63,331 bases of DNA from a virus (Duplodnaviria > Caudoviricetes). The DNA is taken from the IMG/VR virus record IMGVR_UViG_3300037247_000518, positions 1-63,331 of that record, one strand, 5' to 3'. Position 1 is the stretch's first letter; each line of letters opens with the position of its first letter. Made by a program: the position numbers and the translations under genes. Positions 6,011 to 40,472 of the stretch are shown here, one piece after another. A model generated the notes under the pieces. The model ran no database searches. It worked only from the letters and a program-made list of their open reading frames with translations, and was not told the origin of the DNA.

Positions 6011-8465
6011 TCCTAGCTGCACTCGCTGTATCTTGCATAGCGCGGCGGAAAGCGTCTGCATCCCTGCCTCTGGTCCTGACGACGCCAAGATTCTGTTCTA
6101 CGGAGAAGGCCCAGGCGGGGAAGAAGACAAGGAGAACGAGCCGTTCATAGGGCCAGCAGGCCAGGAGCTTGATGTACTTCTAGGAGAAGCCGGACTCTCA
6201 CGAAAGCGTGTGCGAGTCTCTAACACCGTCCGCTGCCGCCCGCCTGGTAATAGAGACCCGAGTGAAGACGAGCGCGCCGCGTGTATGCTCTATACTGTCC
6301 GCGAGATCGAGGCAGTGAAGCCGAAAATCATAATCGCTCTGGGTGTCTCTGCTCTCAAAGCACTTACGGGCATTAAGAAGATTGGCGATAGCCGAGGTAA
6401 ACTTCTTTCGCTGCTTCCACAGTATCGCTCGGATGTGCCGGTCATCGCCACATACCACCCTGCCGCGTATCTTCACAACCCAGGTATGCGTGGTGCGTAC
6501 TCGAAATCTATCATCGAAGACATGCGTCTCGCGCAAAAGGTGGTATCTGGCTCGGTCATGCGGGCGAAGATTGTCACGTCTCTGAACAAGGGTGCCGTTA
6601 TCAGACGAACGCTAAAGCGCCTCGCCAAGTGCGACGTGCTCGGCTGCGACCTGGAGTGGGAGGTTCTGCCGTCGAAGAAGAAGGACCCTCTTGGCATGTG
6701 GCCGTGGTCTGCACGTAGAGGTAAGCGTCCGCGTCCTGTGTCTATCGCCATCGCAGGCCGCGTAGACGACAAGATCCTCGCTCTGTCTGTGCCATTCACG
6801 AGCGAGTATGCGGACGACGTGCGCCAGATCATCCGTAGAGTGCCTACCATCTACCACAATGCGATGGCCGACTTGATCTGGCTATATCATCTGGGCTGGA
6901 AAGTGAAGCTCGATAGCTGTACGTTCATCCTAGCCTCGCTCTTGAAGATCGACAGTTCACTGTCACTAAAAGTCCTCGCGCCCATGCTGACAGACATGCC
7001 AGTAGGATGGGAGCGTGATGATTCTGGTATGGGCATCATGCCGGTTTCGAGAGACGAGTGGCGCAGGAAGTTAAAGTATGGTGGCTATGATGCCATCGCG
7101 ACATTCCTACTCAAGCCTAAGCTGCTTGAGCTGGTACACGAGCAGAAGCGAGACGATGTGCTCCCGCTCTATCATCACGTGTTGCTTCCTGCAACTGAGA
7201 TTCTTGCGAGGACAGCTCTGAGCGGTACACCCATAGATCAGCCGCTCTTGAAGTCTATACGGACGAAGGTCTTGCGTAGGGTTAGTGTTCTCACTGAGAA
7301 GATAGGCGATGAATTAGAATTGCCTGCTGATTATGAAGCGATTATCAGTAGCGACATGAAACTCGCTCCCTATCTTGAACGCGTTGGTGTGGACCTACCG
7401 AGGACAAGGAAGACCGATCGGCCTAGCGTCACGAACGATGTTCTGCTCAAGAACAAGAAGGCGCATACGGTCATTCCGCCTATCATCACACGTAGACAGT
7501 TGACTAAGCAAGAATCTGGCTACTGGCGGCCCTGGACGTGGCTCCTGGAGACACAGCGCGACAAACGGCTCCATACTATCTACCGGCTTTCGGTGGCCTC
7601 TACCGGGCGCTCGTCTACGGAGGGTGAAATAGGGTATACGTTCCAACAGTTTCTCAGAGGTAAAAAGTTTCGCCGCCTCGTTCAGGCTCGTAAGGGCTGG
7701 GAAATTCTCTCTGTTGACCAATCGCAGATCGAACTCAGGATCGTCGCCTGGCTCGCGCAAGAACGGCGCATGCTAGAATTCTTCCGGGATGATAAAGACC
7801 TGCATACTGCGATAGCGGGGTGGATGAAAGCCCTGGAAGCAGGGTGGACTATTAAGAAGTACATCAGGCACATGGAGCAGTGGACAGGGGATGTCACAAG
7901 GGCAGAACGCACCGGAGCAAAGCCCATCAACTTCGGCTTACTTTTCGGTGGCGGGCCATCTGTTGTTCAGAAGACCGCGCGCAAAGACTATGGGATTATT
8001 CTTAGTGATGAGCAGTCGGAAGTAGCCTACGATGCATATCACATCTTCTACCCTGACGTACGGCCCTGGCAGGAGACATTCTGGCGTGATGTCAAGCGCG
8101 GATATGGGGAGACATCGCTGGGTCGCAGGCGTAGTGTCAGAGAGGACGAAGAGGGGCCGGATGGCGTGTGGCGTAAGTACATCAACCTCGATGTGCAGGC
8201 TACGGCGTCTGATCTTTCATTGTTTTGCATGGACTACACATGGGAATTACTGAGGAAGGAGTTTGGTAGGCATCTCAGGAGTCTAGCCGAGAATATAGGG
8301 TTCTTCCACGACGCGACTTTGATCCACCTTGATCGCGAGGTCAGGAGTGAAGTCGGGGCCATTGTGAGAGAGTCGTGGGAGCACCCTCCACTAGACCGTA
8401 TAGGTCTCGAAATGGACGTGCCGCTGAAAGCTGATATCAAGATCAGAGAGCGTTGGACTACTTGA
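5997..8465 (+). CDS. Family A DNA polymerase with N-terminal family-4 uracil-DNA glycosylase domain and 3'-5' exonuclease
   Basis: UDG: CxxC, GEGPG, CRPPGNRDP, TYHP; exonuclease: DLE, HNAMAD, YGGYD; polymerase: DQSQIELR, RTGAKPINFG, HDA. Confidence 0.93.
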   Translation: MMIFDPSCTRCILHSAAESVCIPASGPDDAKILFYGEGPGGEEDKENEPFIGPAGQELDVLLGEAGLSRKRVRVSNTVRCRPPGNRDPSEDERAACMLYTVREIEAVKPKIIIALGVSALKALTGIKKIGDSRGKLLSLLPQYRSDVPVIATYHPAAYLHNPGMRGAYSKSIIEDMRLAQKVVSGSVMRAKIVTSLNKGAVIRRTLKRLAKCDVLGCDLEWEVLPSKKKDPLGMWPWSARRGKRPRPVSIAIAGRVDDKILALSVPFTSEYADDVRQIIRRVPTIYHNAMADLIWLYHLGWKVKLDSCTFILASLLKIDSSLSLKVLAPMLTDMPVGWERDDSGMGIMPVSRDEWRRKLKYGGYDAIATFLLKPKLLELVHEQKRDDVLPLYHHVLLPATEILARTALSGTPIDQPLLKSIRTKVLRRVSVLTEKIGDELELPADYEAIISSDMKLAPYLERVGVDLPRTRKTDRPSVTNDVLLKNKKAHTVIPPIITRRQLTKQESGYWRPWTWLLETQRDKRLHTIYRLSVASTGRSSTEGEIGYTFQQFLRGKKFRRLVQARKGWEILSVDQSQIELRIVAWLAQERRMLEFFRDDKDLHTAIAGWMKALEAGWTIKKYIRHMEQWTGDVTRAERTGAKPINFGLLFGGGPSVVQKTARKDYGIILSDEQSEVAYDAYHIFYPDVRPWQETFWRDVKRGYGETSLGRRRSVREDEEGPDGVWRKYINLDVQATASDLSLFCMDYTWELLRKEFGRHLRSLAENIGFFHDATLIHLDREVRSEVGAIVRESWEHPPLDRIGLEMDVPLKADIKIRERWTT

Positions 8466-15807: not shown

Positions 15808-16347
15808 ATGCGTAATAAGAGTGTCACCGTCACCATAGAAGGTATCCAGAATAGCAGGAGAACATACGCCACAAAAGCGGTGTTAACGCACCTCCTAGAG
15901 AGGGACGGGCTTCTATGCCAGCTTTGTCAAAAGTCTCTTGGAGAGGAAGACCTTAGTATTGATCACATCATGCCACAGGGTGTAGGAGGGAGGCACACGC
16001 TAGATAACTTCCAACTAGCTCATGGGCGATGCAATAAGAGTAAGGGTAGAGGCTCACATGCAAACTTGTTATTCAAAGCAGGCATCATTCCAGTAGGCAT
16101 AGCTTCTACAAGCGCGGAGTATCGGATACTATATGCGGAGGCACGAGATGCTATAGAGACTCGTTGGTGGAGGAAGTGGGGTAGTAGCTTGGTTGGGTCT
16201 GGGAGGCGATACTCGATATCAGAATGGAAATACATTGAGGACGACGTGTACGCGAAAGTCTGGAAGCTGCGTGTAAGGAAAGGAGAAGAGGCGGCGCTGG
16301 CGTACGATCCAAAGCGATCAGAGTTCAGCAGAAGGAGTACAGTATGA
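15808..16347 (+). CDS. HNH endonuclease
   Basis: RDGLLCQLC...IDHIMP...GG...NFQLAHGRCN. Confidence 0.88.
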   Translation: MRNKSVTVTIEGIQNSRRTYATKAVLTHLLERDGLLCQLCQKSLGEEDLSIDHIMPQGVGGRHTLDNFQLAHGRCNKSKGRGSHANLLFKAGIIPVGIASTSAEYRILYAEARDAIETRWWRKWGSSLVGSGRRYSISEWKYIEDDVYAKVWKLRVRKGEEAALAYDPKRSEFSRRSTV

Positions 16348-16742
16348 AAATAGGGAAAACATATTACTTCGAGGCAGCCCATAGCCTGCCGGGACATAAC
16401 GGTAAATGTAGAAATCTTCATGGACACAGTTACCGTCTCGATGTTGAATTAGAAGGTATCCCGATACTATATCTACATTGCTCCGATGATGGGATGATTC
16501 TTGACTTCGATGATCTCGATAGGGCCGTCGAACGAATCATTGATGGGCACCTAGACCATAGAAATCTAAACGCTTCGTTACCTGAGTCTGAGGTCCGTCG
16601 AACAACTGCCGAACTGATTTGTGGATGGGTCTCAAGACGTATCGATCAGGAGCTAGCCGCAGTGAGGACTGGGCGTGACTTCCGTCTCTCTCGTGTCCGT
16701 CTCTGGGAGACAGTGAAGTCCTGGGCTGAGTGGACACCGTGA
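16344..16742 (+). CDS. queD: 6-carboxy-5,6,7,8-tetrahydropterin synthase
   Basis: FEAAH, CRNLHGHSY, DF, LDH..LN, WET. Confidence 0.92.
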   Translation: MKIGKTYYFEAAHSLPGHNGKCRNLHGHSYRLDVELEGIPILYLHCSDDGMILDFDDLDRAVERIIDGHLDHRNLNASLPESEVRRTTAELICGWVSRRIDQELAAVRTGRDFRLSRVRLWETVKSWAEWTP

Positions 16743-17134
16743 CTAGTCCAGAGCGTCGTATCCTGCCTGATGTTCGCAAGAGCATCACGCACAAGACGGT
16801 GATCCAGGATCGTGCGATGGGCAACATCTCGCTATTCATCACAGCGGGTATGTATGATGACGAGGCTCTCGGCGAAGTCTGGATCAACATCGGCAAACAG
16901 GGGACGACGTTACGCGGATTGACTGATACGATAGCGATTGAGCTGTCCTTGCTTCTTCAGTATGGAGTCCCACTCGAAGCCATCGTCGAGCAGTTTCGTG
17001 GGCATCGCTACGAGCCACTTGGAACGACGGCGAACCCCCACATCCCAAACTGTGTGTCTATCATCGATTACGTGGTACAATGGCTAGAGTGGGCGTTCAT
17101 CACCGAGAGACAGAAGGAGGATCCTGATGCCTGA
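16730..17134 (+). CDS. Stand-alone TSCPD domain (class II ribonucleotide reductase C-terminal-like)
   Basis: GEVWINIGKQGTTLRG, SLLLQYGVPLE, SIIDY. Confidence 0.75.
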   Translation: MDTVTSPERRILPDVRKSITHKTVIQDRAMGNISLFITAGMYDDEALGEVWINIGKQGTTLRGLTDTIAIELSLLLQYGVPLEAIVEQFRGHRYEPLGTTANPHIPNCVSIIDYVVQWLEWAFITERQKEDPDA

Positions 17135-17417
17135 TATTTATATCAATTTGACACATCAGCAATACAAAGAGGTCGAGCGACAAATGCGTGCGTTCGAGGA
17201 GACGACGCACGGCGAGGGCACAGCCTACTATCATAAGTCGTTCGCTATGGACGTGGGAGGCATCCGATTCGAGTTCCACGGCCCCCCCGTGAAAGCAAGA
17301 CGGGGTGCGCTCGTTCTCGGTGATCCGCTGTGCAAAGTTATGCAAGGGAGCGATCCCACTATACTATGCGATAAGCCAGAGGGGCATCCTGGAGAACACT
17401 CTCGGGCAGGCAAATGA
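17127..17417 (+). CDS. Hypothetical protein with C-terminal C-C-H-H motif
   Basis: CDKPEGHPGEH; coupled to neighbours. Confidence 0.5.
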   Translation: MPDIYINLTHQQYKEVERQMRAFEETTHGEGTAYYHKSFAMDVGGIRFEFHGPPVKARRGALVLGDPLCKVMQGSDPTILCDKPEGHPGEHSRAGK

Positions 17418-18184
17418 TCGAAGTAAGCGAGATGTACGTAGCACCACAGGGCGAGGGGCCGAATATGGGTCGCCTGTCGCTCTTTGTCAGGCTGCGTCGC
17501 TGTACGCTGCGTTGTGTCTGGTGCGATACGAAGCAGACATGGGACAAGGGCGATCCAGATTACGAGAAGTATGAGACCTACGAGCCACACCAGCTTGCCA
17601 GCGCAATGCTAAAGAAGGGTCAGCCCTTTGGCAGACTTTCTTCGCTCGATGTCCAAGCCATTGTGCTGACGGGAGGCGAGCCGCTGATGTGGCAAGAGGA
17701 GATGGTCGAGGCATTGATTTCGTATCGTAGCACTCACGGTATCCCAGTCGAAGTCGAGACTTCTGGGACTATCGTGCCGAACACGGACATGCTCATGAAC
17801 TGTAGCTTCACCGTCTCGCACAAGCTAGCCTCTTCGCATAACGAGGGCATCCTGAGAGATTACCTGTGGAATGAGAAGGTTGTGCAGCGCATCATAGCGC
17901 ACAGCGGGCAATCTCTGCGCAATGTGAACTTCAAGCCTGTCGTAGACCCTGTTCAAGATGTCGTGGAGGTTGCGTCATACCTGAATTGGCTTAACAACAT
18001 ATCTGACCGCCTTGGAATTCCTTGGAGTTTCATGCGGGAGCACATCTATCTTATGCCACAAGGAACAAGTGCTCTTGAGCTGAGCGCCAACCAGGCGCCT
18101 ATTATTGAGATGGCGCAGGCTTACGGAGTGCGGTGTACTACGCGTATGCACATCATCGCATACGGAGACGAGAGGGGAAGATAA
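17414..18184 (+). CDS. queE: 7-carboxy-7-deazaguanine synthase (radical SAM)
   Basis: QGEG, FVRL, CTLRCVWCDT, LTGGEP, VETSG, YLMPQ. Confidence 0.92.
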   Translation: MIEVSEMYVAPQGEGPNMGRLSLFVRLRRCTLRCVWCDTKQTWDKGDPDYEKYETYEPHQLASAMLKKGQPFGRLSSLDVQAIVLTGGEPLMWQEEMVEALISYRSTHGIPVEVETSGTIVPNTDMLMNCSFTVSHKLASSHNEGILRDYLWNEKVVQRIIAHSGQSLRNVNFKPVVDPVQDVVEVASYLNWLNNISDRLGIPWSFMREHIYLMPQGTSALELSANQAPIIEMAQAYGVRCTTRMHIIAYGDERGR

Positions 18185-19146
18185 TGCAGATCAGTATGGG
18201 CGCCGCAGCAAGCCTGGCAGAGAGCGTGTCCGATCTCCTGCAAGACGGCCTTGGACGCCTTAGTATGCGTGGGCCTACAGCGTTTGCTGGCATACCGCGC
18301 GGCGGCATACCAGCAGCCATGATGGTAGCGAGGGCCTGGGCTGGTCTTGGGGGTAACTCTGAGATTCCCGTGTTTAGCAGTGACGATGTGCCCGAATCGT
18401 TCCGCGAGCGTATCGTCCTCGTTGACGACATACGAGTCACTGGTAATACTCTGGCTAGAGCAAAGGCTCTATTTGCCCCGAATGTTATATCCCAAGTCGT
18501 ACTGGTGCATAAGGGATTAGCTTCTGATGTTCTATCTGGGATGGAGGTGCCAGCAAATGAATGGGTGACATTTCCTTGGGAGACTCGTGAGAATGACGGT
18601 AAGCCAGAGGACGCTGTCTCCAGGCTCATCGAGTATCTAGGTGACGACCCAACTCGGGACGAGCTACTTGAGACGCCTGCCAGGGTGCTGCGCTTCTACG
18701 ACGAGCTGCGCGCCGCCTCGGAGCAGGAGATAGTCTCTGCGACCTTTAAGTCTACGACAAAAGACCTCGTAGTAGTCTCCGGCATCCCGTTCGCTTCGCT
18801 CTGTGAACACCACATGCTCCCCTTCTTCGGAGAAGCGGCAATCGGATATATACCGAACGGAAGTATCCTTGGTTTGTCCAAGCCCGCTCGTGCTGTCCAG
18901 CAAGCAGCGGCGGCGCTGACAGTACAGGAGCACTTGACGGCGCAAGTCGCTGAGCAGATTAAGGAGTGGACAGGTTCGGGCGCTGTCGCTGTCTTCACAA
19001 CCGCTGTGCATTCCTGCATGGTGATACGCGGTGTCAAAGCCATAGGCTCCAGGACATCGGCGTCGGCAATGCTTGGCAGCTTCCGCACATCTCCTGAACT
19101 ACGTGCCGAATTCTTTGCGGTCGTTGAGGGGGCGAGCAGGCTATGA
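18184..19146 (+). CDS. folE: Fusion of a Gpt-like purine phosphoribosyltransferase and GTP cyclohydrolase I
   Basis: N-terminal GIPRGG, VLVDDIRVTGNT, WVTFPWE; C-terminal ETPARV, SLCEHH, GLSK, VQE, HSCMVIRG; TAATG coupling to queE. Confidence 0.9.
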   Translation: MQISMGAAASLAESVSDLLQDGLGRLSMRGPTAFAGIPRGGIPAAMMVARAWAGLGGNSEIPVFSSDDVPESFRERIVLVDDIRVTGNTLARAKALFAPNVISQVVLVHKGLASDVLSGMEVPANEWVTFPWETRENDGKPEDAVSRLIEYLGDDPTRDELLETPARVLRFYDELRAASEQEIVSATFKSTTKDLVVVSGIPFASLCEHHMLPFFGEAAIGYIPNGSILGLSKPARAVQQAAAALTVQEHLTAQVAEQIKEWTGSGAVAVFTTAVHSCMVIRGVKAIGSRTSASAMLGSFRTSPELRAEFFAVVEGASRL

Positions 19147-19382
19147 CGCGGCTTGAAGGTATAGTTGCGGGACACTGTACCGCTGACGATCATCACGAGT
19201 ACGGGGCTGAGCCTGAAGACTGCGTTTTGATAGACGGTAAGGAAGTTTGCCTCTATTGTCTTATTGATGTGGCTAAGCCGCATCTGATGTTTGAGGGAGA
19301 CTGCATTGCCAGAGAGGAAGAAAGCCTGAGACGGCAGCGAGAGGAACTTATTGGTGCTCCTGAGGGAGATCCCGGTGCTTGA
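19143..19382 (+). CDS. Hypothetical protein
   Basis: ATGA overlap; CLYC. Confidence 0.5.
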   Translation: MTRLEGIVAGHCTADDHHEYGAEPEDCVLIDGKEVCLYCLIDVAKPHLMFEGDCIAREEESLRRQREELIGAPEGDPGA

Positions 19383-19954
19383 CAGCACTAGCAGAAAAGT
19401 TGTATACTGAAAGCATGAAACTTCCAAAGAGGCTCAAGAGCGGACGCAGGCTGGTAGCAACGGCGGCTGATGGTCGTGTGGGTCTGTACTGTTTGGGAAC
19501 GGTCGATGAAGATGGCGACTACGCCCTCCTCCTTCCGAACGGTAAGATCAAGAGAGGTATGGTCGGTGCGAAAGGCTATCCTCTCGCGCCAAGCGGGAAC
19601 TGGAGGTGGCTTCGCGCGAGGAAAAAGCGAGTGCGAGAGCGCAGGGAGAAGAAGCTGCAGGCTATACAGCGGCGTTCGCGTAATGGCGACGAGGAGTCGA
19701 AGAAGGTCCTTGTTTCCAGCATCCATACCTGTGTGGACTGCAAGCGCAACATGCTTGGCTATCAGCACTCTCATACAATGCTCCACGAGCGCGGCTATGG
19801 CGTGGCGTCTATCTGTTGTCGGTGTGCGCGTCGGCGTGGCGGTCGCTGCGAGCTATACGACCGTACAGCGAGAATCAGACGCCACACGCAGCAACGAGAT
19901 GCACGCAGGGCCGAGTGGCGAGAACTAAAGCAACGGCTGAGGCATATCACATGA
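19379..19954 (+). CDS. Basic zinc-binding hypothetical protein
   Basis: CVDC...CCRC; overlaps neighbours. Confidence 0.5.
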   Translation: MTALAEKLYTESMKLPKRLKSGRRLVATAADGRVGLYCLGTVDEDGDYALLLPNGKIKRGMVGAKGYPLAPSGNWRWLRARKKRVRERREKKLQAIQRRSRNGDEESKKVLVSSIHTCVDCKRNMLGYQHSHTMLHERGYGVASICCRCARRRGGRCELYDRTARIRRHTQQRDARRAEWRELKQRLRHIT

Positions 19955-20367
19955 CATCGAACCGAGTGAAGACGATCAAGCGGCTGAGGCGTCTGGCGAA
20001 GACAATGACGCAGGCACAAGCTGCTGAGCGCCTCAATGTCCACCGTCAGTGGGTGCATGTGCTGGCGCACGACTACGGTATCAGGTTCCGGGGCCAGCCA
20101 AAGGCGCGGCCGCTCAGGCGCTGTGATACGTGCGCGTTCAAACTCTGCGATGCTCCCAGATGTCTACGCTGTAAGTGGACGCCCAAGAGGATCAAACGTC
20201 TTCGGGAGCGCTATGGGCTCTCGCAGATCAACATGTCTGTTCATGTCTTAAGGATGAATGTCTTCGCATGTCAGAGATGGGAGACTGGGCGAGCCCTCCC
20301 CGCTCCGAGATCGCTAAGGCTGCTTGAGCGCAGCGAGAAGAAGATCAGGCGCCGTACTACGGCGTGA
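19951..20367 (+). CDS. Double helix-turn-helix regulator with central Zn ribbon
   Basis: MTQAQAAERLNVHRQWV; CDTC..CLRC; IKRLRERYGLSQ...RWETG. Confidence 0.7.
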   Translation: MTSNRVKTIKRLRRLAKTMTQAQAAERLNVHRQWVHVLAHDYGIRFRGQPKARPLRRCDTCAFKLCDAPRCLRCKWTPKRIKRLRERYGLSQINMSVHVLRMNVFACQRWETGRALPAPRSLRLLERSEKKIRRRTTA

Positions 20368-20950
20368 TGCCGTTTGCCTCTAGTGCTTCTCTCCGTCTGA
20401 TGCAGGCTTTACACTTTCCACACGACAACTCGTCTGGGTCATAACAGCTTACGGTCTTTTGCAGCATTTCCGGGTCGCCACCGAGTTCAAGATACTCGTG
20501 TACAGCCCCGGCTTTTGATAGTGCTCTTAAACTCGGCCCAAGCAGAGGCGATGAGACCCTCACCTGGTATCCCGCTGTGTGCGAGAGTAGTGCTGATATG
20601 CCGGTATGGAAGTCCGCGTCATTGTCGGCGTACATATCGTCAGCGACTGAGCACAGCGCTATCTCTGATGCGCCGTAGAGCGCTTGTGCAGCGGCGCAGA
20701 GTAGTACGTTACGCTGTGGTATGTATGCATCATCGTGCTCGATGCGGTCGAGTCTCAGCATGTTGCGTATGATGTAGAGGCCGGCGTGGAGGGCTTCTGG
20801 TTGCGCTATGTGATCCAACTCTTTGTTGCTATACCTGATATTGAGATCGAAGTAGACGGGTGTCCAGTCTGGCGATTGCCGCCGCAAGAGCCAGAGGCCT
20901 ATATACGAGTCGAGTCCTCCTGAGTACAGGATGATTTTTCTAGTGCCCAT
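20357..20950 (-). CDS. queC: 7-cyano-7-deazaguanine synthase
   Basis: LYSGGLDS, YIPQRN, TVSCY...CGKCKACIRR. Confidence 0.9.
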   Translation of the reverse strand: MGTRKIILYSGGLDSYIGLWLLRRQSPDWTPVYFDLNIRYSNKELDHIAQPEALHAGLYIIRNMLRLDRIEHDDAYIPQRNVLLCAAAQALYGASEIALCSVADDMYADNDADFHTGISALLSHTAGYQVRVSSPLLGPSLRALSKAGAVHEYLELGGDPEMLQKTVSCYDPDELSCGKCKACIRRREALEANGITP

Positions 20951-21095
20951 CGCATAAGCTCCACGGCCAATCTTTCTCAACCACGTCGCGCATTGCCTTG
21001 CCGCACAGTCCACAGTTCGCATAGGTAGTGAGATTCGCCAATATGTCTGCTAAGTCATAGAGGCCAAACCAACGCTTCACGAGTCGTCTGATCAT
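20940..21095 (-). CDS. Small Zn-binding protein (51 aa, not in ORF track)
   Basis: GGAGGAG RBS; MIRRLVKRWF...CGLC...CDGH. Confidence 0.5.
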   Translation of the reverse strand: MIRRLVKRWFGLYDLADILANLTTYANCGLCGKAMRDVVEKDWPWSLCDGH

Positions 21096-29416: not shown

Positions 29417-29566
29417 TCAGTCGAATACCGTCACTGTCACCGTCTTTGTTTTCGGGTTCGGATGCCGTCTCTGTATCTTCTCCGCCATCTTCTCCGCCGC
29501 CTCAACCACCTCCGTCGCTTCCACTGCCGAACCACCGACGACAATGACTGCCTTCACGTATGCCAT
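29417..29566 (-). CDS. 49-aa micro-protein (not in ORF track), paralog of 32943-33080
   Basis: GGAGGTG RBS; MAYVKAVIVVGGSAVEATEVVEAAEK. Confidence 0.6.
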   Translation of the reverse strand: MAYVKAVIVVGGSAVEATEVVEAAEKMAEKIQRRHPNPKTKTVTVTVFD

Positions 29567-29834
29567 GAGACACCTCCATCTCAACTATGAGAGCATGACC
29601 CACGTCACGCACTCATGGAGGAGATGGAAAATCTTCTCCTCCGCCGTTACTCCGGCTCAACCAACGATTCCCCGTGTCTGTGCCAATCAGACACCCCACA
29701 GGCGTTCCAGCGTCATTGCTATCGCAGACTACCGTCGCTCTCTAAAGATAGAGAGTAGACTACAGCCAGCCGGACTCTCCCGTCGCTGCTGCCGCTCATC
29801 GTCCGACGCCATCACCTGCTCGCGGTTGCTATGG

Positions 29835-29869
29835 CAAAACAAATAGGGTGACATACCTCATGTCACCCT
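29835..29869 (-). terminator. Intrinsic terminator or attenuator within the leftward leader
   Basis: 10-bp stem AGGGTGACAT/ATGTCACCCT followed by ATTTGTTTTG on the minus strand. Confidence 0.65.
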
Positions 29870-30053
29870 CTCTGTCTGGCTCTACCGGCGCCTGTCGAGT
29901 GTTCTGCACGTGACCACGGATCGTCCAATCTCAGCGCTCGGAGCACCCCCGCCAAGCTGTATCCTACTGGTCTGCGTCTCCATCGGACTCAGACGTGCTC
30001 GCCTCTGTCGGCAGTCGGTATGCATTTGTTAATGTGGCTCTGTCGCCAATAGA

Positions 30054-30082
30054 ATGGTATAACTTCTCTGCGGGTATGTCAA
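30054..30082 (-). promoter_or_regulatory. Leftward sigma70-type promoter
   Basis: TTGACA-17 nt-TACCAT. Confidence 0.7.
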
Positions 30083-30135
30083 GGCTTTTTACTTGACGTG
30101 TTATGGCGCTCTGTGAGCTACGTCACAAGCGGAGC

Positions 30136-30165
30136 TTGACGCCCTCGGCGCGCGTGTGCTATGCT
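30136..30165 (+). promoter_or_regulatory. Rightward sigma70-type promoter
   Basis: TTGACG-18 nt-TATGCT with extended TG. Confidence 0.55.
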
Positions 30166-30201
30166 GGACTCGCGTACAGGGCCGCTTACTGGAGGTAGCT
30201 A

Positions 30202-30387
30202 ATGGACATCTGGCAGGCACTAGAGGCGATAGCTACGAAGCCTTTCAACGAGAAGGAGACATACAGACCTCGTCCGTCGCCATCTGCTGGCTACGTGTTC
30301 ATGGGCTGTCTCACGTGCGGGCTGTCCTACGATGTCGCCTGGTGGCATCGACTTGTACGGGGCCACTGGCCGGAGGTGAAAGAATGA
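30202..30387 (+). CDS. Small CxxC protein
   Basis: GGAGGT RBS. Confidence 0.55.
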   Translation: MDIWQALEAIATKPFNEKETYRPRPSPSAGYVFMGCLTCGLSYDVAWWHRLVRGHWPEVKE

Positions 30388-30438
30388 TTATCCTGCTTCC
30401 ATCACGCATGGGCGGAAAGCAGATGCTACTCGAAGCCG

Positions 30439-30897
30439 TTGCAAGGAGGACCGGGGCGGTACTTGCTCGGCCTGATGGCGTCTATCGCTGGGATGGCGAC
30501 AGGTGGCAGAAGATACCAGAGCGCGAGTTACGGCCAGCCTGGAGGTGAGGTCATACTAGACATCACTGCGAGACATGCTAGTGGCCGTAAGGTCCGGTTC
30601 GATGCCTTCCCTATGCGGTCATCTTATCGTGAGGCGAAAGTACCGCCATGCCGACACCTGGCGCCTTGTGGCTGCGATGTTGCAACCGAGCATCGCGACG
30701 CTAGGTCATGCTGCCTCCGGTGTCCGTTTGAGCTGTGTCGATATGATGTAGCTGGCGGCATTCGCGCCATCCTCTTGCCTGAGCGTGATAAAGAAATCAG
30801 GACACGCCGAAGTCAGGGCGTGGGGCGTAAAGCTCTGGCGCAGGAGTTTGGGCTTACTGAGCGGAACATCTCTCGTATTCTGGCAGGCGGAGGCTAA
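30439..30897 (+). CDS. Cys-cluster plus C-terminal HTH regulator (start uncertain)
   Basis: CCLRCPFELCRYD; RKALAQEFGLTERNISRIL. Confidence 0.65.
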   Translation: MQGGPGRYLLGLMASIAGMATGGRRYQSASYGQPGGEVILDITARHASGRKVRFDAFPMRSSYREAKVPPCRHLAPCGCDVATEHRDARSCCLRCPFELCRYDVAGGIRAILLPERDKEIRTRRSQGVGRKALAQEFGLTERNISRILAGGG

Positions 30898-30899
30898 TC

Positions 30900-31580
30900 A
30901 TGAAATCGGATCCCAGTCTTACTCTCGCCCAACGTAAAGACGCTAAGCTGCGCGACAAGCCCGATGGCTACGTAGACCCCGCACGCTATCGCTCGCGCAA
31001 GCACCGGCCTACAGTCAAGAAACACAAGAAACACATCGTACCGCCGCATCAGAAGCCTAGCGATGCTACTGCTGTTGTCGAGTCGGAGCCTTATCCGAGG
31101 CATATGAGACTGGGCATCATGCTAGTTGCTATTCAGGATGGCGTGCCCAGTACGGCTGAGCAGTTTGATATCCCCGAGCGTACTATCTACGGGTGGTTCG
31201 CGCAAGAGGGCGGCCTGACTGCGGTTCGGGAGTATGCACAGGCTGCTGCCAGTAACTCGTTCACGAAGCTGATTCAGAAGGCCTGCGACGAGTTATATTC
31301 AAGGATGGAGGAGGCTTCGGACGATGAATTATTTGCCAGCTTCAGGAAGATGCTAGATACGGCGGAAGAGGCAGGTCTAGTGGGGGTAAGGAGCGAGAAG
31401 AAGCGTCGAGGTGAATCTGAGGAGAGCCCAGGACACCCGCCCGGGACTCCTAGTATAGTCTTGCAGTTCGTCCCTCCCGCCCCTGCTATCGCTCCGCCAG
31501 GGTCCAAATCCGAGTCTGAATCGCCTGCCCAGGGGGAGGACGTAGTCGAAGGCGAAGTTACTGACGTATTCGATGAGTAG
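30900..31580 (+). CDS. terS: Putative terminase small subunit (HTH)
   Basis: TAEQFDIPERTIYGW HTH, helical core, disordered C-terminus; upstream of terL. Confidence 0.5.
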   Translation: MKSDPSLTLAQRKDAKLRDKPDGYVDPARYRSRKHRPTVKKHKKHIVPPHQKPSDATAVVESEPYPRHMRLGIMLVAIQDGVPSTAEQFDIPERTIYGWFAQEGGLTAVREYAQAAASNSFTKLIQKACDELYSRMEEASDDELFASFRKMLDTAEEAGLVGVRSEKKRRGESEESPGHPPGTPSIVLQFVPPAPAIAPPGSKSESESPAQGEDVVEGEVTDVFDE

Positions 31581-31588
31581 GAGGAGCC

Positions 31589-31792
31589 ATGCCGTTTGTA
31601 TTAGGCCGCCAACTAGGGACGGAATTGTGTCAGGCGATGGGGATCAAGCCGGATCGTGTCAAGGCGATCACGATCCTTATGCCAATCGATGATATCGCCG
31701 TGGCGGAGGTGGAATACTACCCAGAACCCGATGAACTGAAAGGCGTCTTCGAGCGCTACCGGTTCGAGCGCCTGCCCGAGCCTCAGGTGTAG
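31589..31792 (+). CDS. Hypothetical protein
   Basis: AGGAGG RBS. Confidence 0.55.
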   Translation: MPFVLGRQLGTELCQAMGIKPDRVKAITILMPIDDIAVAEVEYYPEPDELKGVFERYRFERLPEPQV

Positions 31793-31846
31793 GTGAGAAC
31801 CTCGGGGGAACGCTCTCGGCGCCCGCCTAGGCTCCCCGTCGAGACC

Positions 31847-31875
31847 TTGACTTCTCTTGCAGGCTGTGGTATAGT
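31847..31875 (+). promoter_or_regulatory. Sigma70-type promoter
   Basis: TTGACT-17 nt-TATAGT with extended TG. Confidence 0.75.
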
Positions 31876-31880
31876 GACTA

Positions 31881-32006
31881 TGCAAGTAGGGGCCGCACGC
31901 AGTTGCTACCTGAGACTCCGTGTTGCAGTCGTTCCGAAGATACAGGTTAGGGACTCCCGAAAGCGCGAGAAGAGCCTCCGTCATGGACGATGGGGGCTCT
32001 TTCTCT
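31881..32006 (+). ncRNA. Candidate small RNA of about 125 nt
   Basis: Bounded by the promoter and a 12-bp terminator hairpin (31971-32000); no RBS-led ORF; two ANGGAC motifs. Confidence 0.5.
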
Positions 32007-32159
32007 AGGTCTGAGTCCACTACTAACGCTCTCCCATCACCCGTCTGAGACTCCCGCCTAGGTCTGAGTCAAAGGGGAACGGCGCCTGTAGACCCGCCTG
32101 AGTGCGGCGCCCTGCCCGCCTGGGACCTGGTAGTCTAGAGGGATACATACTTTTGCCAC

Positions 32160-32189
32160 TTGACAAGCTCACGCGCGATCTCTTATAAT
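32160..32189 (+). promoter_or_regulatory. Consensus sigma70 promoter
   Basis: TTGACA-18 nt-TATAAT. Confidence 0.8.
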
Positions 32190-32243
32190 GATAGTGCCGG
32201 ACGCCAACGGAGTGCCGGACGGTAGCATGGAAGGAGCAGGATA

Positions 32244-32456
32244 ATGGGTGACGATATAGCGACATGTATCCGGGAAGCTCACGCCACACTAATACGTGCC
32301 GACGACGGGATACGAGTGGGCGCTGATGCGCCGGCGGTGCGCGAGACTAGACGAGAGGTCCTACACGCCATCGACGTACTGACCAGGGTTGGAGAACTCA
32401 TGCTGGGCGAGGAACAGTGGGAGAAGTACGACAGGCAGCTAGACGAGGAAGACTAG
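32244..32456 (+). CDS. Hypothetical protein
   Basis: AAGGAG RBS downstream of promoter. Confidence 0.55.
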   Translation: MGDDIATCIREAHATLIRADDGIRVGADAPAVRETRREVLHAIDVLTRVGELMLGEEQWEKYDRQLDEED

Positions 32457-32478
32457 TAGCAGAGAGAGGAGCAAGAAC

Positions 32479-32676
32479 ATGGGTATAGCAGCAATAGCCA
32501 TACGGGACGAGACGAGCCAGGCACTACAGCGCTTGATGGTCCTGGCCAACGGCAATCAGAGCGAGGTAGAGGCGTCGCTCTCGGACGTGATCGATGCGCT
32601 GCTGGCCATCTCAGACCAGTGGCTATCTGAGGGAGAGATGCTAGTGGAGGTGGTCGCAATGGCAGAGAAGAACTGA
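32479..32676 (+). CDS. Ribbon-helix-helix-like protein, copy 1
   Basis: IAIRDET..AL..LM...SLSDVIDALL. Confidence 0.6.
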   Translation: MGIAAIAIRDETSQALQRLMVLANGNQSEVEASLSDVIDALLAISDQWLSEGEMLVEVVAMAEKN

Positions 32677-32730
32677 CTGAGGGAAGCAGGTGGAGGGGCG
32701 TCGGGAGGCGAAGATAGTAAAGAGGACAGC

Positions 32731-32916
32731 ATGATACTACGAGATGAGACGCGGAACGCGCTGTATGCGCTGATGCAGAAGGCCAACTCCAGTCAGGCTG
32801 GTGTGGGAAAGGTGTCTTACTCGGACGTGATCGACACTCTGCTCGAAATCGCGAGCGAGACGCAGCTTGAGGATGAGGTGCTGGAGGCCATAGTAATAAC
32901 GGCAGAAAAGGACTAG
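32731..32916 (+). CDS. Ribbon-helix-helix-like protein, copy 2
   Basis: ILRDET..AL..LM...SYSDVIDTLL. Confidence 0.6.
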   Translation: MILRDETRNALYALMQKANSSQAGVGKVSYSDVIDTLLEIASETQLEDEVLEAIVITAEKD

Positions 32917-32942
32917 GCTAGCAGTAGCGAAGGAGAAGTAGC

Positions 32943-33080
32943 ATGTACGTACACGCAGTCGTAATCATCAGCGGTGGCACGAAGGAAGACGCGGCGCAGG
33001 TGACTGAGGCAGCAATGAAGGCAGCCGACAAAGCGGTGACGAAGTTGGCTGCGAAGACGCAGGTCCAGGAGCTTAGCTAG
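32943..33080 (+). CDS. 45-aa micro-protein (not in ORF track)
   Basis: AAGGAG RBS; MYVHAVVIISGGTKEDAAQVTEAAMK. Confidence 0.6.
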   Translation: MYVHAVVIISGGTKEDAAQVTEAAMKAADKAVTKLAAKTQVQELS

Positions 33081-33087
33081 GAGAGTG

Positions 33088-33113
33088 GGGCGTCGGGAAC
33101 GGCGCCCTTCTCT
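33088..33113 (+). terminator. Intrinsic terminator
   Basis: GGGCGTCG-GGAA-CGGCGCCC then TTCTCT. Confidence 0.55.
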
Positions 33114-33569
33114 GCCCCTGTGTATGTCCCGCCTGGGTCTAGGTCCGGTACTAACGAGAACGACGTTCCCGGACCCGGGCTGGTGCCTGGCCTCGCCTGC
33201 CTGGGAGGAGACGGGCTGCAGGCGGGGCTAGGTCCAGGTGCTCTACTAACGATGGGCTGCTGGGTCTGGATGCGCTACTAACGATGCCTCTCTTACCCTC
33301 GCACACTTGTTCGCCAGCACACTCGTTCGACTCCCGCCCGCCCCGCCTGCCCCGTTATGTCAAGCTGCAAAAATAGATACTTTTGGCACTTGACACAATG
33401 ACCGATTCATGAGACGATGGACTCGGAGCAAAAAGACAGCGGCGCAACACACGCGCATTGCCAATAAGACGCGAGAGATCGTCGCAGTCGCCGGTTGGCG
33501 AACCGGAACATACCAGCGAATTGCTCTACGTCCATTTGCACGCACTACTAGTCCGATGGAGACAGTATA

Positions 33570-33959
33570 ATGGCGAAGACGAAGACCGGACGGAAGACGG
33601 TGAAACGTGGCAAGACGGCCACGCGGAAGAATGGTGCGCGAGCAGTCGCCACGCGCAAGAATGAGCGCGTAGCGGCGTTCGCATACGATGAGCGCATACC
33701 GGTGCTGGAGAGCGAGCTTCGGCACATGAAGCGTTCGGCTACCGTGGCCGAACTCTTCGAGTCGGTAGAGTCGGCGCAATTCCGCACGGTCCGGCGCGTA
33801 GCGGCGACGTTCCGCGCGGACCAGCGCAGCGATGTGCCGGTGTTCGCTCATGGCGAAGCCGCCGGTACGTGGACGCTGGCGAAGCACACGCGCACGGTCA
33901 ACGGTAGCAAGCGTGGCCGTGGCCGCGTGAGCCGCAAGAGCACACGGCGCAGCAAGTAG
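33570..33959 (+). CDS. Basic-tailed winged-helix (H1-like) protein, paralog of the 21339 gene core
   Basis: ERIPVL..SATVAELF..RTVRRV..GE...TW; K/R-rich tails. Confidence 0.6.
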   Translation: MAKTKTGRKTVKRGKTATRKNGARAVATRKNERVAAFAYDERIPVLESELRHMKRSATVAELFESVESAQFRTVRRVAATFRADQRSDVPVFAHGEAAGTWTLAKHTRTVNGSKRGRGRVSRKSTRRSK

Positions 33960-34530: not shown

Positions 34531-34800
34531 AGCACTGTGTCGCCGCTGGATGCACACTGCCGCCGGTCTATGGCATGCGCTACTGCTGGCCGCATGGCGT
34601 GATAGTGCGAGCGCTGGCGCAGATGGCCGCAGCACGTCGATGATGAAGACTTGCGGAGCGAGAATCGTAAGCTCGAATGGTCGCGTAACTTCATGGTGTG
34701 ACCGTGGAGCGAGCCACGCCGGATACCACCATTTCGTTGCTGGCCGTGGCGAATACCGAGAGTTGGAGCGCCGCAGCCGCTAGCCGAACGCGAATGTCGA

Positions 34801-34830
34801 GAGAGAGCCGCCAGAAACGGCGGCTCTTTC
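34801..34830. terminator. Terminator-like hairpin between convergent units
   Basis: AGAGCCGCC/GGCGGCTCT stem then TTC. Confidence 0.55.
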
Positions 34831-34991
34831 GCGTGGGGGAATGGTACGTCAAGATATTGTGGGAATGAGCGCGTTGATGCTCCGGGCTCATCTCCCGTTA
34901 TTTTTCCTCTGCCGCCGCACACTACCTAGCCCTCATGCGCGTGTATTGACTCCAGCCAGGCACGCATAGGCATACATGAATGTCTTCGTCT

Positions 34992-39592: not shown

Positions 39593-39980
39593 AGATTTCG
39601 CATCAATAGGTCTTGAAGTCAGGATGCACGGCTTCAAGCGCGCGCTGAGCAAGCTCGACCCCGCTAGAGCAGAACGCGCGCTCGACCAGGGGCTTGATCG
39701 TGGCTCGCAATTTGTCTTTGACACAATTAAGGCACAGTCTCGTGTTAAGACGGCGCGGTACTTTCTCTCTTGGGTGCGTGAGCGTGTCTCGTCCAGTCTA
39801 TACAGGATCACCAACGCTGAATCTTATGCCGAGTTCGTGACGGGCAGGACGCAGCACACGACGCTCGAAGGCGGCAGGCGGCGGGGCGCCGCCGCAGCAT
39901 TTATGCGCAAGATAAGCCGGGAGGTACTCCCGACTGTCAGAAAGCTCATGGACGAAAGCATTAGGGAGCATATGACTTAA
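39582..39980 (+). CDS. Putative HK97 gp10-like virion completion protein
   Basis: RVKT...NAESYAEFV...G pattern. Confidence 0.45.
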   Translation: MARKDFASIGLEVRMHGFKRALSKLDPARAERALDQGLDRGSQFVFDTIKAQSRVKTARYFLSWVRERVSSSLYRITNAESYAEFVTGRTQHTTLEGGRRRGAAAAFMRKISREVLPTVRKLMDESIREHMT

Positions 39981-40156
39981 TGCCTAGCACTTCTCACCAT
40001 CAGCATGTCTTCATCTGCCGTCGTAACCCAATGGCTCATAACTGCTTCCTCGACTCATGTGTGGAAATCCTTGTGATCTGCCCAGAGTGCGGAAGCGCAG
40101 GCCGCATGCTGGTCCTTACGTTCAGCAATAGTGGCATCTGGGAAGAAGTCGAATAA
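39980..40156 (+). CDS. Small Cys-rich protein (58 aa, not in ORF track)
   Basis: TAATG coupling; CPECG. Confidence 0.45.
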   Translation: MPSTSHHQHVFICRRNPMAHNCFLDSCVEILVICPECGSAGRMLVLTFSNSGIWEEVE

Positions 40157-40157
40157 G

Positions 40158-40472
40158 ATGTACGTGTTGCGCAGGACGGTCGGTACCTCAATTACAATCA
40201 AGGCAAGTGATGCTGTGATACGGCTCAAGCTCGTAGGTATTGACTGGCTCGGCGCTTGTGCTCTCCTACACATCACGAGAAATGGAGAGCCGCCTAGACC
40301 GATGGAGATGGGTCCTGGCGAGACTGTCTCTCTCCACCCCGACGTGCAGTTTCAATTGTTAAGGCTCTCGTACGCTACGCACGATGGCACACCCGCCCGC
40401 GTAGCGGAGTTCGGCATCGACGCGCCACGTTCGATAGCTGTGAGACGTTCGGAGACTGAGAATGGCCCTTGA
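40158..40472 (+). CDS. CsrA/RsmA-like RNA-binding protein, about double length
   Basis: N-terminal MYVLRRTVGTSITI and C-terminal FGIDAPRSIAVRRSE match the CsrA termini. Confidence 0.65.
   Translation: MYVLRRTVGTSITIKASDAVIRLKLVGIDWLGACALLHITRNGEPPRPMEMGPGETVSLHPDVQFQLLRLSYATHDGTPARVAEFGIDAPRSIAVRRSETENGP

Follow-up and report, generated by a model that had tools for sequence, protein, structure and literature searches.

We identified an orphan unit made of a promoter (P1) and a terminator-like hairpin (T1) in an intergenic region of a phage genome, and we judge the chances to be about even that it yields a short non-coding RNA of ~120 nt within a cassette-like regulatory region. The window, that is, the whole stretch of DNA analyzed, is a whole virus record of 63,331 bases with a completeness estimate of 87%. 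Its sequence was present in 1 DNA run, labeled as a marine sediment metagenome, and in no listed RNA run, an outcome that is uninformative about expression. The element belongs to an uncultured marine-sediment phage with a gene content typical of tailed phages. The match of P1 to the promoter consensus, the conservation of T1, the absence of a conserved open reading frame, and the order gene, promoter, hairpin, promoter in a distant relative argue for the unit, and a weak U-tract, an RNA body without notable structure, and the gene order of a syntenic relative, in which no promoter precedes the hairpin, argue against it. The self-contained small RNA of ~125 nt put forward in the original prediction is supported in silico as a promoter-to-hairpin non-coding unit.

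In the reading that we prefer, host sigma-70 RNA polymerase would start at P1, near 31882, and most transcripts would end at, or be trimmed back to, T1, giving a non-coding RNA of ~120-125 nt with a stable 3' stem-loop. T1, which comes from the phage's own terminator family, would most likely also stop transcription of the upstream operon and would insulate the cassette that follows, for which a separate consensus promoter (P2) is present. Whether such an RNA would be a trans-acting, low-valency regulator or the by-product of an emptied gene cassette appears about equally likely, and on present evidence we regard the element as plausible, yet as nothing beyond an ordinary promoter-terminator unit.

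Genome setting and promoters

The replication genes, the leftward genes, and the structural genes of the phage are arranged in successive blocks, and the P1-T1 unit lies in the run of small genes that leads toward the terminase, with HTH proteins encoded immediately 5' of it (Table 1). A blastn search with positions 31000-33000 against 50,697 GenBank phage records gave zero matches, and the lineage is without a match in GenBank phage records for the stretches tested. A search for tRNA and tmRNA genes found none. Genes resembling queuine tRNA-ribosyltransferase, QueD, QueE, QueC, and GTP cyclohydrolase were identified at 1109-2131 and 16344-21022, and these genes suggest 7-deazaguanine modification of the phage DNA.

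Table 1. Positions of the features in the window that are discussed in the text
Feature	Position	Strand	Description
Replication and 7-deazaguanine module	1-20 kb	+	
Minus-strand gene block	20 to 29.6 kb	-	
Small-gene run toward terminase, head and tail genes	from 30.2 kb	+	
Upstream operon	30202-31792	+	
IG1	31793-32243		451-nt intergenic region holding P1-T1, flanked by a 67-codon gene and by 4 small genes that form a cassette
CCCGCCTRGG copy CCCGCCTAGG	31822-31831	+	15 nt 5' of the P1 -35 hexamer
P1	31847-31875	+	TTGACT (31847-52), 17-nt spacer, TATAGT (31870-75), extended TG (31867-68); 10/12 match plus TG
Predicted RNA body	31882-31966	+	start at ~31882, estimated from the -10 position; holds CTGAGACTCC (31910-19) and AGGGAC (31949-54)
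T1 hairpin	31967-32005	+	core of 12 bp (31971-82 with 31989-32000), 2 G-U; 16 pairs with 1 bulge when extended
T1 hexaloop AUGGAC	31983-88	+	closing pair C31982-G31989
Repeat-rich spacer between T1 and P2	32005-32159	+	2 copies of CTAGGTCTGAGTC (32005, 32058), TACTAACG (32021), CCCGCCTRGG (32053, 32115), GGGAACGGCGCC (32075), ATACTTTTGCCAC 5' of the P2 -35
P2	32160-32189	+	TTGACA, 18 nt, TATAAT; 12/12 match; serves the small-gene cassette starting at 32244
T2	33087-33108	+	directly after a stop codon; loop GGGAAC, or folded as a GGAA tetraloop
T3	34800-34832	+	directly after a stop codon; hexaloop AGAAAC, C-G closed
Terminase	36454	+	
Portal	38210	+	
CsrA-related gene	40158-40472	+	104 aa, insertion of ~45 residues; Pfam CsrA E 1.4e-4
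Protease	40565	+	
Major head protein	42778	+	
Tape measure protein	55412	+	

The strong promoter with an extended TG that had been proposed ahead of the RNA was found at the positions given, with a scan score of 10/12 plus the TG. Sites with a promoter match of at least 10/12 numbered 13 on the 2 strands of the window, against a mean of 5.0 in 30 Markov shuffles (largest 10). P1 is intergenic and a neighbor of a 12/12 promoter, P2, which lies 285 nt beyond P1 and 160 nt past T1. Among 40 of the 47 entries for the contigs of run X1, zero differences between alleles fell in P1 and the RNA body (31845-31964), a figure that is a bound only, given this coverage of the entries and the breaking of such contigs at variant sites. 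Further, 1 run X1 contig was without 10 nt (31835-44) between the CCCGCCTAGG repeat and the P1 -35 hexamer. The GacA/UvrY box has the motif TGTAAG-N6-CTTACA, and a phage promoter need not carry one; none was identified within 800 nt of P1, and the window total was 14 matches with at most 3 mismatches, against 15.0 expected. The 54-nt leader of P2 (within 32160-32243) holds a tandem repeat, AGTGCCGGACG, at 32193 and 32211.

Hairpin T1, its second allele and the predicted RNA

The terminal hairpin of 12 bp, with a loop that is exactly AUGGAC and a C-G closing pair, proved to be correctly placed in the original prediction. T1 folds at -26.9 kcal/mol (z -4.9), with 0 of 200 shuffles as stable, and it resembles intrinsic terminators in its G+C-rich stem of 12-16 bp, its pyrimidine-rich tail, the pairing kept by compensatory change, and the 2 paralogues that directly follow stop codons. 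Unlike these, it has no clean U run: the tail, UUUCUCU, is a mixed run of U and C that overlaps the outer stem, a kind of tail also found in T2 and T3, and this is why T1 was not listed by a consensus terminator scan, which needs 5 T in 8.

We compared T1 with a second allele, represented by 1 contig of run X1 (depth 12.6) that spans 31935-32115 with 21 substitutions and 7 gaps. Contigs of run X1 were aligned on 30800-33700 at 80% likeness, and the stem of the allele was read by hand from the difference tables; the comparison covers 1 second allele, from the same run X1. The hairpin interval (31967-32005) carries 10 substitutions and 6 indels in this allele. Changes on both sides were identified at pairs 31973/31998 (A-U to G-C) and 31981/31990 (U-A to G-C), C31976 is replaced by U with the pairing kept, UU inserted in the 5' arm is matched by 2 A insertions in the 3' arm, and 1 pair, 31980/31991, is lost (A-A). 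The loop AUGGAC becomes AAGGAU, and the allele motif reads GCAAGGAUGC with the core CANGGANG retained, the changes being limited to the 2 N positions and to the flanking U-A pair, which becomes G-C. Since the G-U pairs are possible only in the + strand RNA, the selected object is the + strand RNA hairpin, and by this comparison of sequences T1 is a real hairpin that acts at the RNA level on the + strand.

The original prediction had named covariation in related phages as a check and a lack of conservation of the GGA loop as a refutation, and the outcome was divided: the stem changes of the second allele were compensatory and its GGA core was kept, whereas the hairpins of 2 relatives (L009 and L011) were without a GGA loop. 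An exact 28-nt pattern of the hairpin gave 0 matches in viral contigs, and the 226-aa neighbor protein searched alone against viral contigs gave 0 loci. With an alignment of this protein, we identified 1 viral locus (L011, 40% identity), 2 metagenome loci (L009 and L010), and 1 irrelevant genome locus; a closer relative, P0001, is 84% identical and is encoded on a 62.6-kb contig. The syntenic relative (G005, locus L011) has a gene followed by a hairpin and then a promoter, and the hairpin loop is without GGA; as no promoter stands before the hairpin there, the P1-to-T1 unit is not conserved at 40% protein identity. In the distant relative L009, the gene is followed by a promoter, then by a hairpin of 12 bp with an 18-nt loop without GGA, and then by another promoter. 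A terminase search gave 6 loci at 23-39% identity. At L014, a hairpin 5' of the terminase with ACGGAU near the loop was dropped as this GGA is paired in its fold. Another ACGGAU hairpin was dropped as it lies within the terminase coding sequence. The region G004:1-14000, considered as a regulatory region, turned out to be a replication module. In 6 relatives, conservation of the 226-aa HTH protein (30900-31580) begins with its first residues, whereas the gene call of the record is 158 aa (P0002). A shorter homologue of this protein is encoded in L010 directly upstream of a terminase-like gene, and on sequence grounds the 226-aa HTH protein may be related to small terminase subunits.

The AGGGAC of the RNA body lies where it had been reported, and the minimum-energy fold places this first GGA in a predicted stem. 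As a whole, the 129-nt RNA folds unremarkably (z -1.57, with 14 of 200 shuffles equally good), and the body without T1 is predicted to have no notable structure. Its CTGAGACTCC stretch was also found at 32045. When the RNA body was searched for duplexes with 84 translation-start regions, no significant pairing emerged, the best value being -51.4 with 3 of 40 shuffles equal or better. In agreement with the earlier description, the unit has no open reading frame led by a ribosome-binding site, neither the ATG (31880) nor the GTG (31920) having a Shine-Dalgarno sequence. The indels of the second allele (-1, +1, +2, +1, +1, +1) shift all frames across the hairpin, and since they are not codon-sized, the 42-codon open reading frame that begins at this ATG, the one that begins at the GTG, and a minus-strand one are not conserved.

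Terminator family and repeat modules

T1 is one of 3 paralogous + strand terminator hairpins (T1, T2, and T3), and T1 and T3 have both arms in common (CGAGA.AGAGCC and GGCUCUUUC). T1 and T3 have purine-rich, C-G-closed hexaloops, and T2 folds with a GGAA tetraloop; a purine-rich loop of this kind is a family trait, so a GGA in 1 copy is unsurprising. The terminator is among several modules that IG1 has in common with a second intergenic region, IG2 (33081-33569). The motif CCCGCCTRGG was identified in 5 copies in the window, against 0.29 expected, with 0 of 100 shuffles reaching 5; 4 of these copies lie in IG1 and IG2 (31822, 32053, 32115, and 33128), and in the shared module GGTCTRRGTCC then follows. 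All 4 window copies of TACTAACG lie in IG1 or IG2, and the 2 window copies of ATACTTTTGNCACTTGACA (32147 and 33377, against 0.01 expected) each precede the next promoter, P2 or P3. A search of viral contigs with the motif of the P2 module gave 0 matches. The modules shared by IG1 and IG2 may serve a phage regulator as binding sites, or they may mark where gene cassettes recombine.

Contigs of run X1 also differ from the window in larger blocks. A contig skips 331 nt (31477-31809), which would remove the 67-codon gene, and a contig joins 32227 to 33088, which would drop the 4-gene cassette, the shorter side of this joint being only 21 letters. Taken with the 10-nt gap, the gaps in the contigs (31477-31809, 31835-31844, and 32227-33088) suggest that cassettes have been gained and lost at the repeat modules. 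Two adjacent genes of 65 and 61 aa (32479-32676 and 32731-32916) are paralogues, with a SYSDVID-type motif that is also found in the 76-aa gene occupying their place in G005 (L011 6536-6766). The sequence GCAGCTTGACATAA occurs in 4 tandem copies in G005 (L011 7000-7065) and in 1 inverted copy in IG2 of the window (33343-33360). After this array, G005 carries GTAGCGTATGCTAC-like repeats at 7070-7300, an array that looks like an origin or operator array.

The arrangement is loosely like that of the PeSL cassettes of T4-type phages (PMC2839356), in that T1-T3 are paralogous, the module upstream of P2 and P3 is repeated, and small genes are flanked; the co-occurring variants of the window with indels, and a possible loss of cassettes at motifs, are further points of likeness. 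PeSLs form compact motifs in which the stem-loop lies within the promoter or abuts it (PMC2839356), whereas in the window a hairpin and the next promoter stand 160-270 nt apart with other repeats between them, and there is no sequence relation. Further, P1 lies upstream of T1, so that a free RNA of 125 nt would result, unlike PeSL.

The CsrA-related gene and the competing readings

The RNA had been paired in the original prediction with a CsrA-like gene, and a CsrA-related gene does exist in the phage but does not adjoin the RNA unit, from which it lies 8.2 kb away. It is located in the head module between portal and protease, the same place as in L014. The 104-aa protein scores 22.2 bits against Pfam CsrA (PF02599), below the gathering cut-off of 27 bits, with similarity to CsrA at both ends of the protein, around the insertion. 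A search with it gave 27 proteins at E <= 0.001, namely, 26 relatives and the window's own; the family members are 102-105 aa long, the relatives are 55-88% identical, and 20 of the 26 aligned members match CsrA at E <= 0.01 (best 1.6e-6). An alignment of the CsrA-like proteins identified 5 viral loci, with a homologue of the 226-aa protein in 1 of the 5 records, and 0 loci in genome contigs. The AlphaFold2 model of the protein is all-beta with a pLDDT of 87.2 and was made as a monomer; CsrA is an intertwined dimer. With VIA-align, RsmN (4kji_A) was matched at Z 5.2 (52 residues, 25% identity, rank 24) and RsmA (1vpz_A) at Z 4.7 (24-25% identity, rank 34), both within the background Z. Foldseek with the model gave no PDB match at E <= 0.001, a sequence search against solved structures gave 0 matches, and tblastn against the 50,697 GenBank phage records gave 0. 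A small zinc-ribbon-like open reading frame (39980-40156) lies directly 5' of the CsrA-related gene, and a promoter-like sequence (TTGACA, 18 nt, TATACC) overlaps its stop codon.

The label of an Rsm-type sponge was not supported, as GGA occurs at background density, no Rfam match was found, only 1 site is looped, the loops of the paralogous terminators differ, and the hairpins of L009 and L011 show no GGA loop. GGA occurs twice in the 125 nt of the RNA; the mean for the genome is 2.23, and 64% of genome windows have at least 2; for ANGGA the count is 2, against a mean of 0.51, with 10.9% of windows having at least 2. ANGGAN hexaloops on stems of at least 4 bp number 9 in the genome, against 8.5 expected, and T1 is the only one on a stem of at least 8 bp (0.17 expected, with at least 1 in 14 of 100 shuffles). 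The caveat attached to the label, that only 2 motifs are present, was well placed, with 1 of the 2 GGA in a loop. Searches with the curated covariance models of Rfam 15 (CsrB, CsrC, RsmX, RsmY, RsmZ, and others) gave 0 matches at gathering score in the window, and at E <= 10 the interval 29500-33700 gave 3 weak, unrelated matches, none to a Csr/Rsm family. Small RNAs that mimic Csr/Rsm targets expose ANGGA or GGA in multiple hairpins or single-stranded stretches (PMC7366521); in the RNA described here, the GGA of AGGGAC is paired in the predicted fold and multiple exposed sites are not found. The unit is like CsrB, CsrC, RsmX, RsmY, and RsmZ in having its own promoter, a terminal hairpin, a length of ~125 nt, and 1 RsmE-optimal hexaloop, and unlike them in its few GGA, the missing Rfam match, the missing GacA/UvrY box nearby, and a hairpin that comes from a terminator family whose other loops are without ANGGA. 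By these sequence features, the RNA does not look like a multi-site CsrA/Rsm sponge.

A single-site ligand of the Csr type is possible, given that the loop is exactly RsmE-optimal and is kept in the variant: UCAUGGACGA (31981-90) fits the optimum (A/U)CANGGANG(U/A) quoted in PMC6849547, citing Schubert 2007. A decoy of this kind, in which the T1 hexaloop, perhaps with the second GGA 34 nt 5' of it, titrates the phage CsrA-related protein or host CsrA, nevertheless appears quite unlikely. The retention of CANGGANG in GCAAGGAUGC amid the changes of the second allele and the presence of the CsrA-related gene in the same phage speak for it, as does the record of csrA genes in phages, which PMC7366521 puts at 30 of 2517 phage genomes. 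On the other side are the background density of GGA and of ANGGAN hexaloops, the lack of a Csr/Rsm match in Rfam even at E <= 10, the paired AGGGAC, the loops of T3 (with the same arms as T1) and T2, and the background Z of the structural match to CsrA. Further, G005 (L011 and L016), which also encodes a CsrA-like protein, is without an ANGGAN hexaloop on stems of at least 5 bp, and the same is true of L009. A low-valency Csr-type pair in the phage, with the CANGGANG hexaloop of the terminator as the ligand of the insertion-bearing CsrA-related protein or of host CsrA, is likewise improbable; if true, it would couple the RNA made early to the control of translation late, in a phage carrying both a CsrA-like protein and its RNA ligand. 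In the literature searched on phage csrA and Csr/Rsm RNAs, as far as its text was available, csrA genes were found in phages and no phage-borne Csr/Rsm RNA was found.

The remaining readings differ in what becomes of the transcript. P1 could drive the downstream genes with T1 as a regulated stop that is read through with a phage factor, so that the RNA would be a terminated leader, much as in lambda, where the strong constitutive promoter PR' gives a short terminated 6S RNA at tR' upstream of the late genes. The window resembles PR'/6S/tR' in its strong promoter, its predicted short terminated RNA, and its position upstream of small genes and then of terminase and head genes, the weakness of the U-tract points to partial termination, genes for HTH proteins lie immediately 5', and a mirror-image unit precedes the leftward genes on the minus strand. 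We regard such a promoter-proximal attenuator as a minor possibility; it is weakened by P2, the 12/12 promoter of the downstream cassette 160 nt after T1, and, unlike in lambda, the flanking proteins included no Q-like product and no member of a Q-type or N-type antiterminator family. The leader of P1 and the leftward leader also share no similarity (best local alignment score 16, shuffle mean 16.1). It is unlikely, too, that the region makes no RNA of its own, with P1 as a chance or decayed site and T1 as the terminator of the upstream operon, 178 nt past its last stop codon. Three points fit this reading: in G005 no promoter stands between the homologous gene and the hairpin after it, T2 and T3 simply terminate their operons, and the region carries long repeat-rich intergenic stretches in any case. 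P1, in contrast, carries an extended -10 TG, and with ~5 chance matches of at least 10/12 expected over both strands of the whole window, 1 in a 180-nt gap and on the right strand would be unlikely. Very improbable is a small protein made from the 42-codon open reading frame (31880-32008) on a leaderless or near-leaderless mRNA, for which the position of the ATG, 5 nt past the -10 hexamer, would allow a transcript to begin at or near it. The frame shift of the second allele, read by hand, alters the last ~14 residues and the stop, and the composition is arginine-rich and not protein-like. The 71-aa frame that encloses the open reading frame had a single match among 1.84 billion representatives, covering 38 residues of a 1799-aa protein, and no Pfam or PHROGs family, and from these searches it has no credible relative. 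Translation of this open reading frame, which the original prediction had set against a small RNA, is on this evidence unsupported in silico, and the predicted RNA stands as non-coding.

If the promoter-terminator unit does make an RNA, a small RNA encoded by a phage of an uncultured lineage from marine sediment would be added to those known. The region also shows that terminators and promoters can be arranged around small genes in a cassette-like manner in phages other than the T4 type. The mirror unit on the minus strand (29835-30082) has a promoter (TTGACA, 17 nt, TACCAT) at 30082-30054 and, ~190 nt further on, a canonical terminator at 29869-29845 with the tail AUUUGUUUUG. It lies ~260 nt ahead of the first leftward gene, its fold has a z of -2.76, and by its sequence it is a second candidate for a short RNA or leader.
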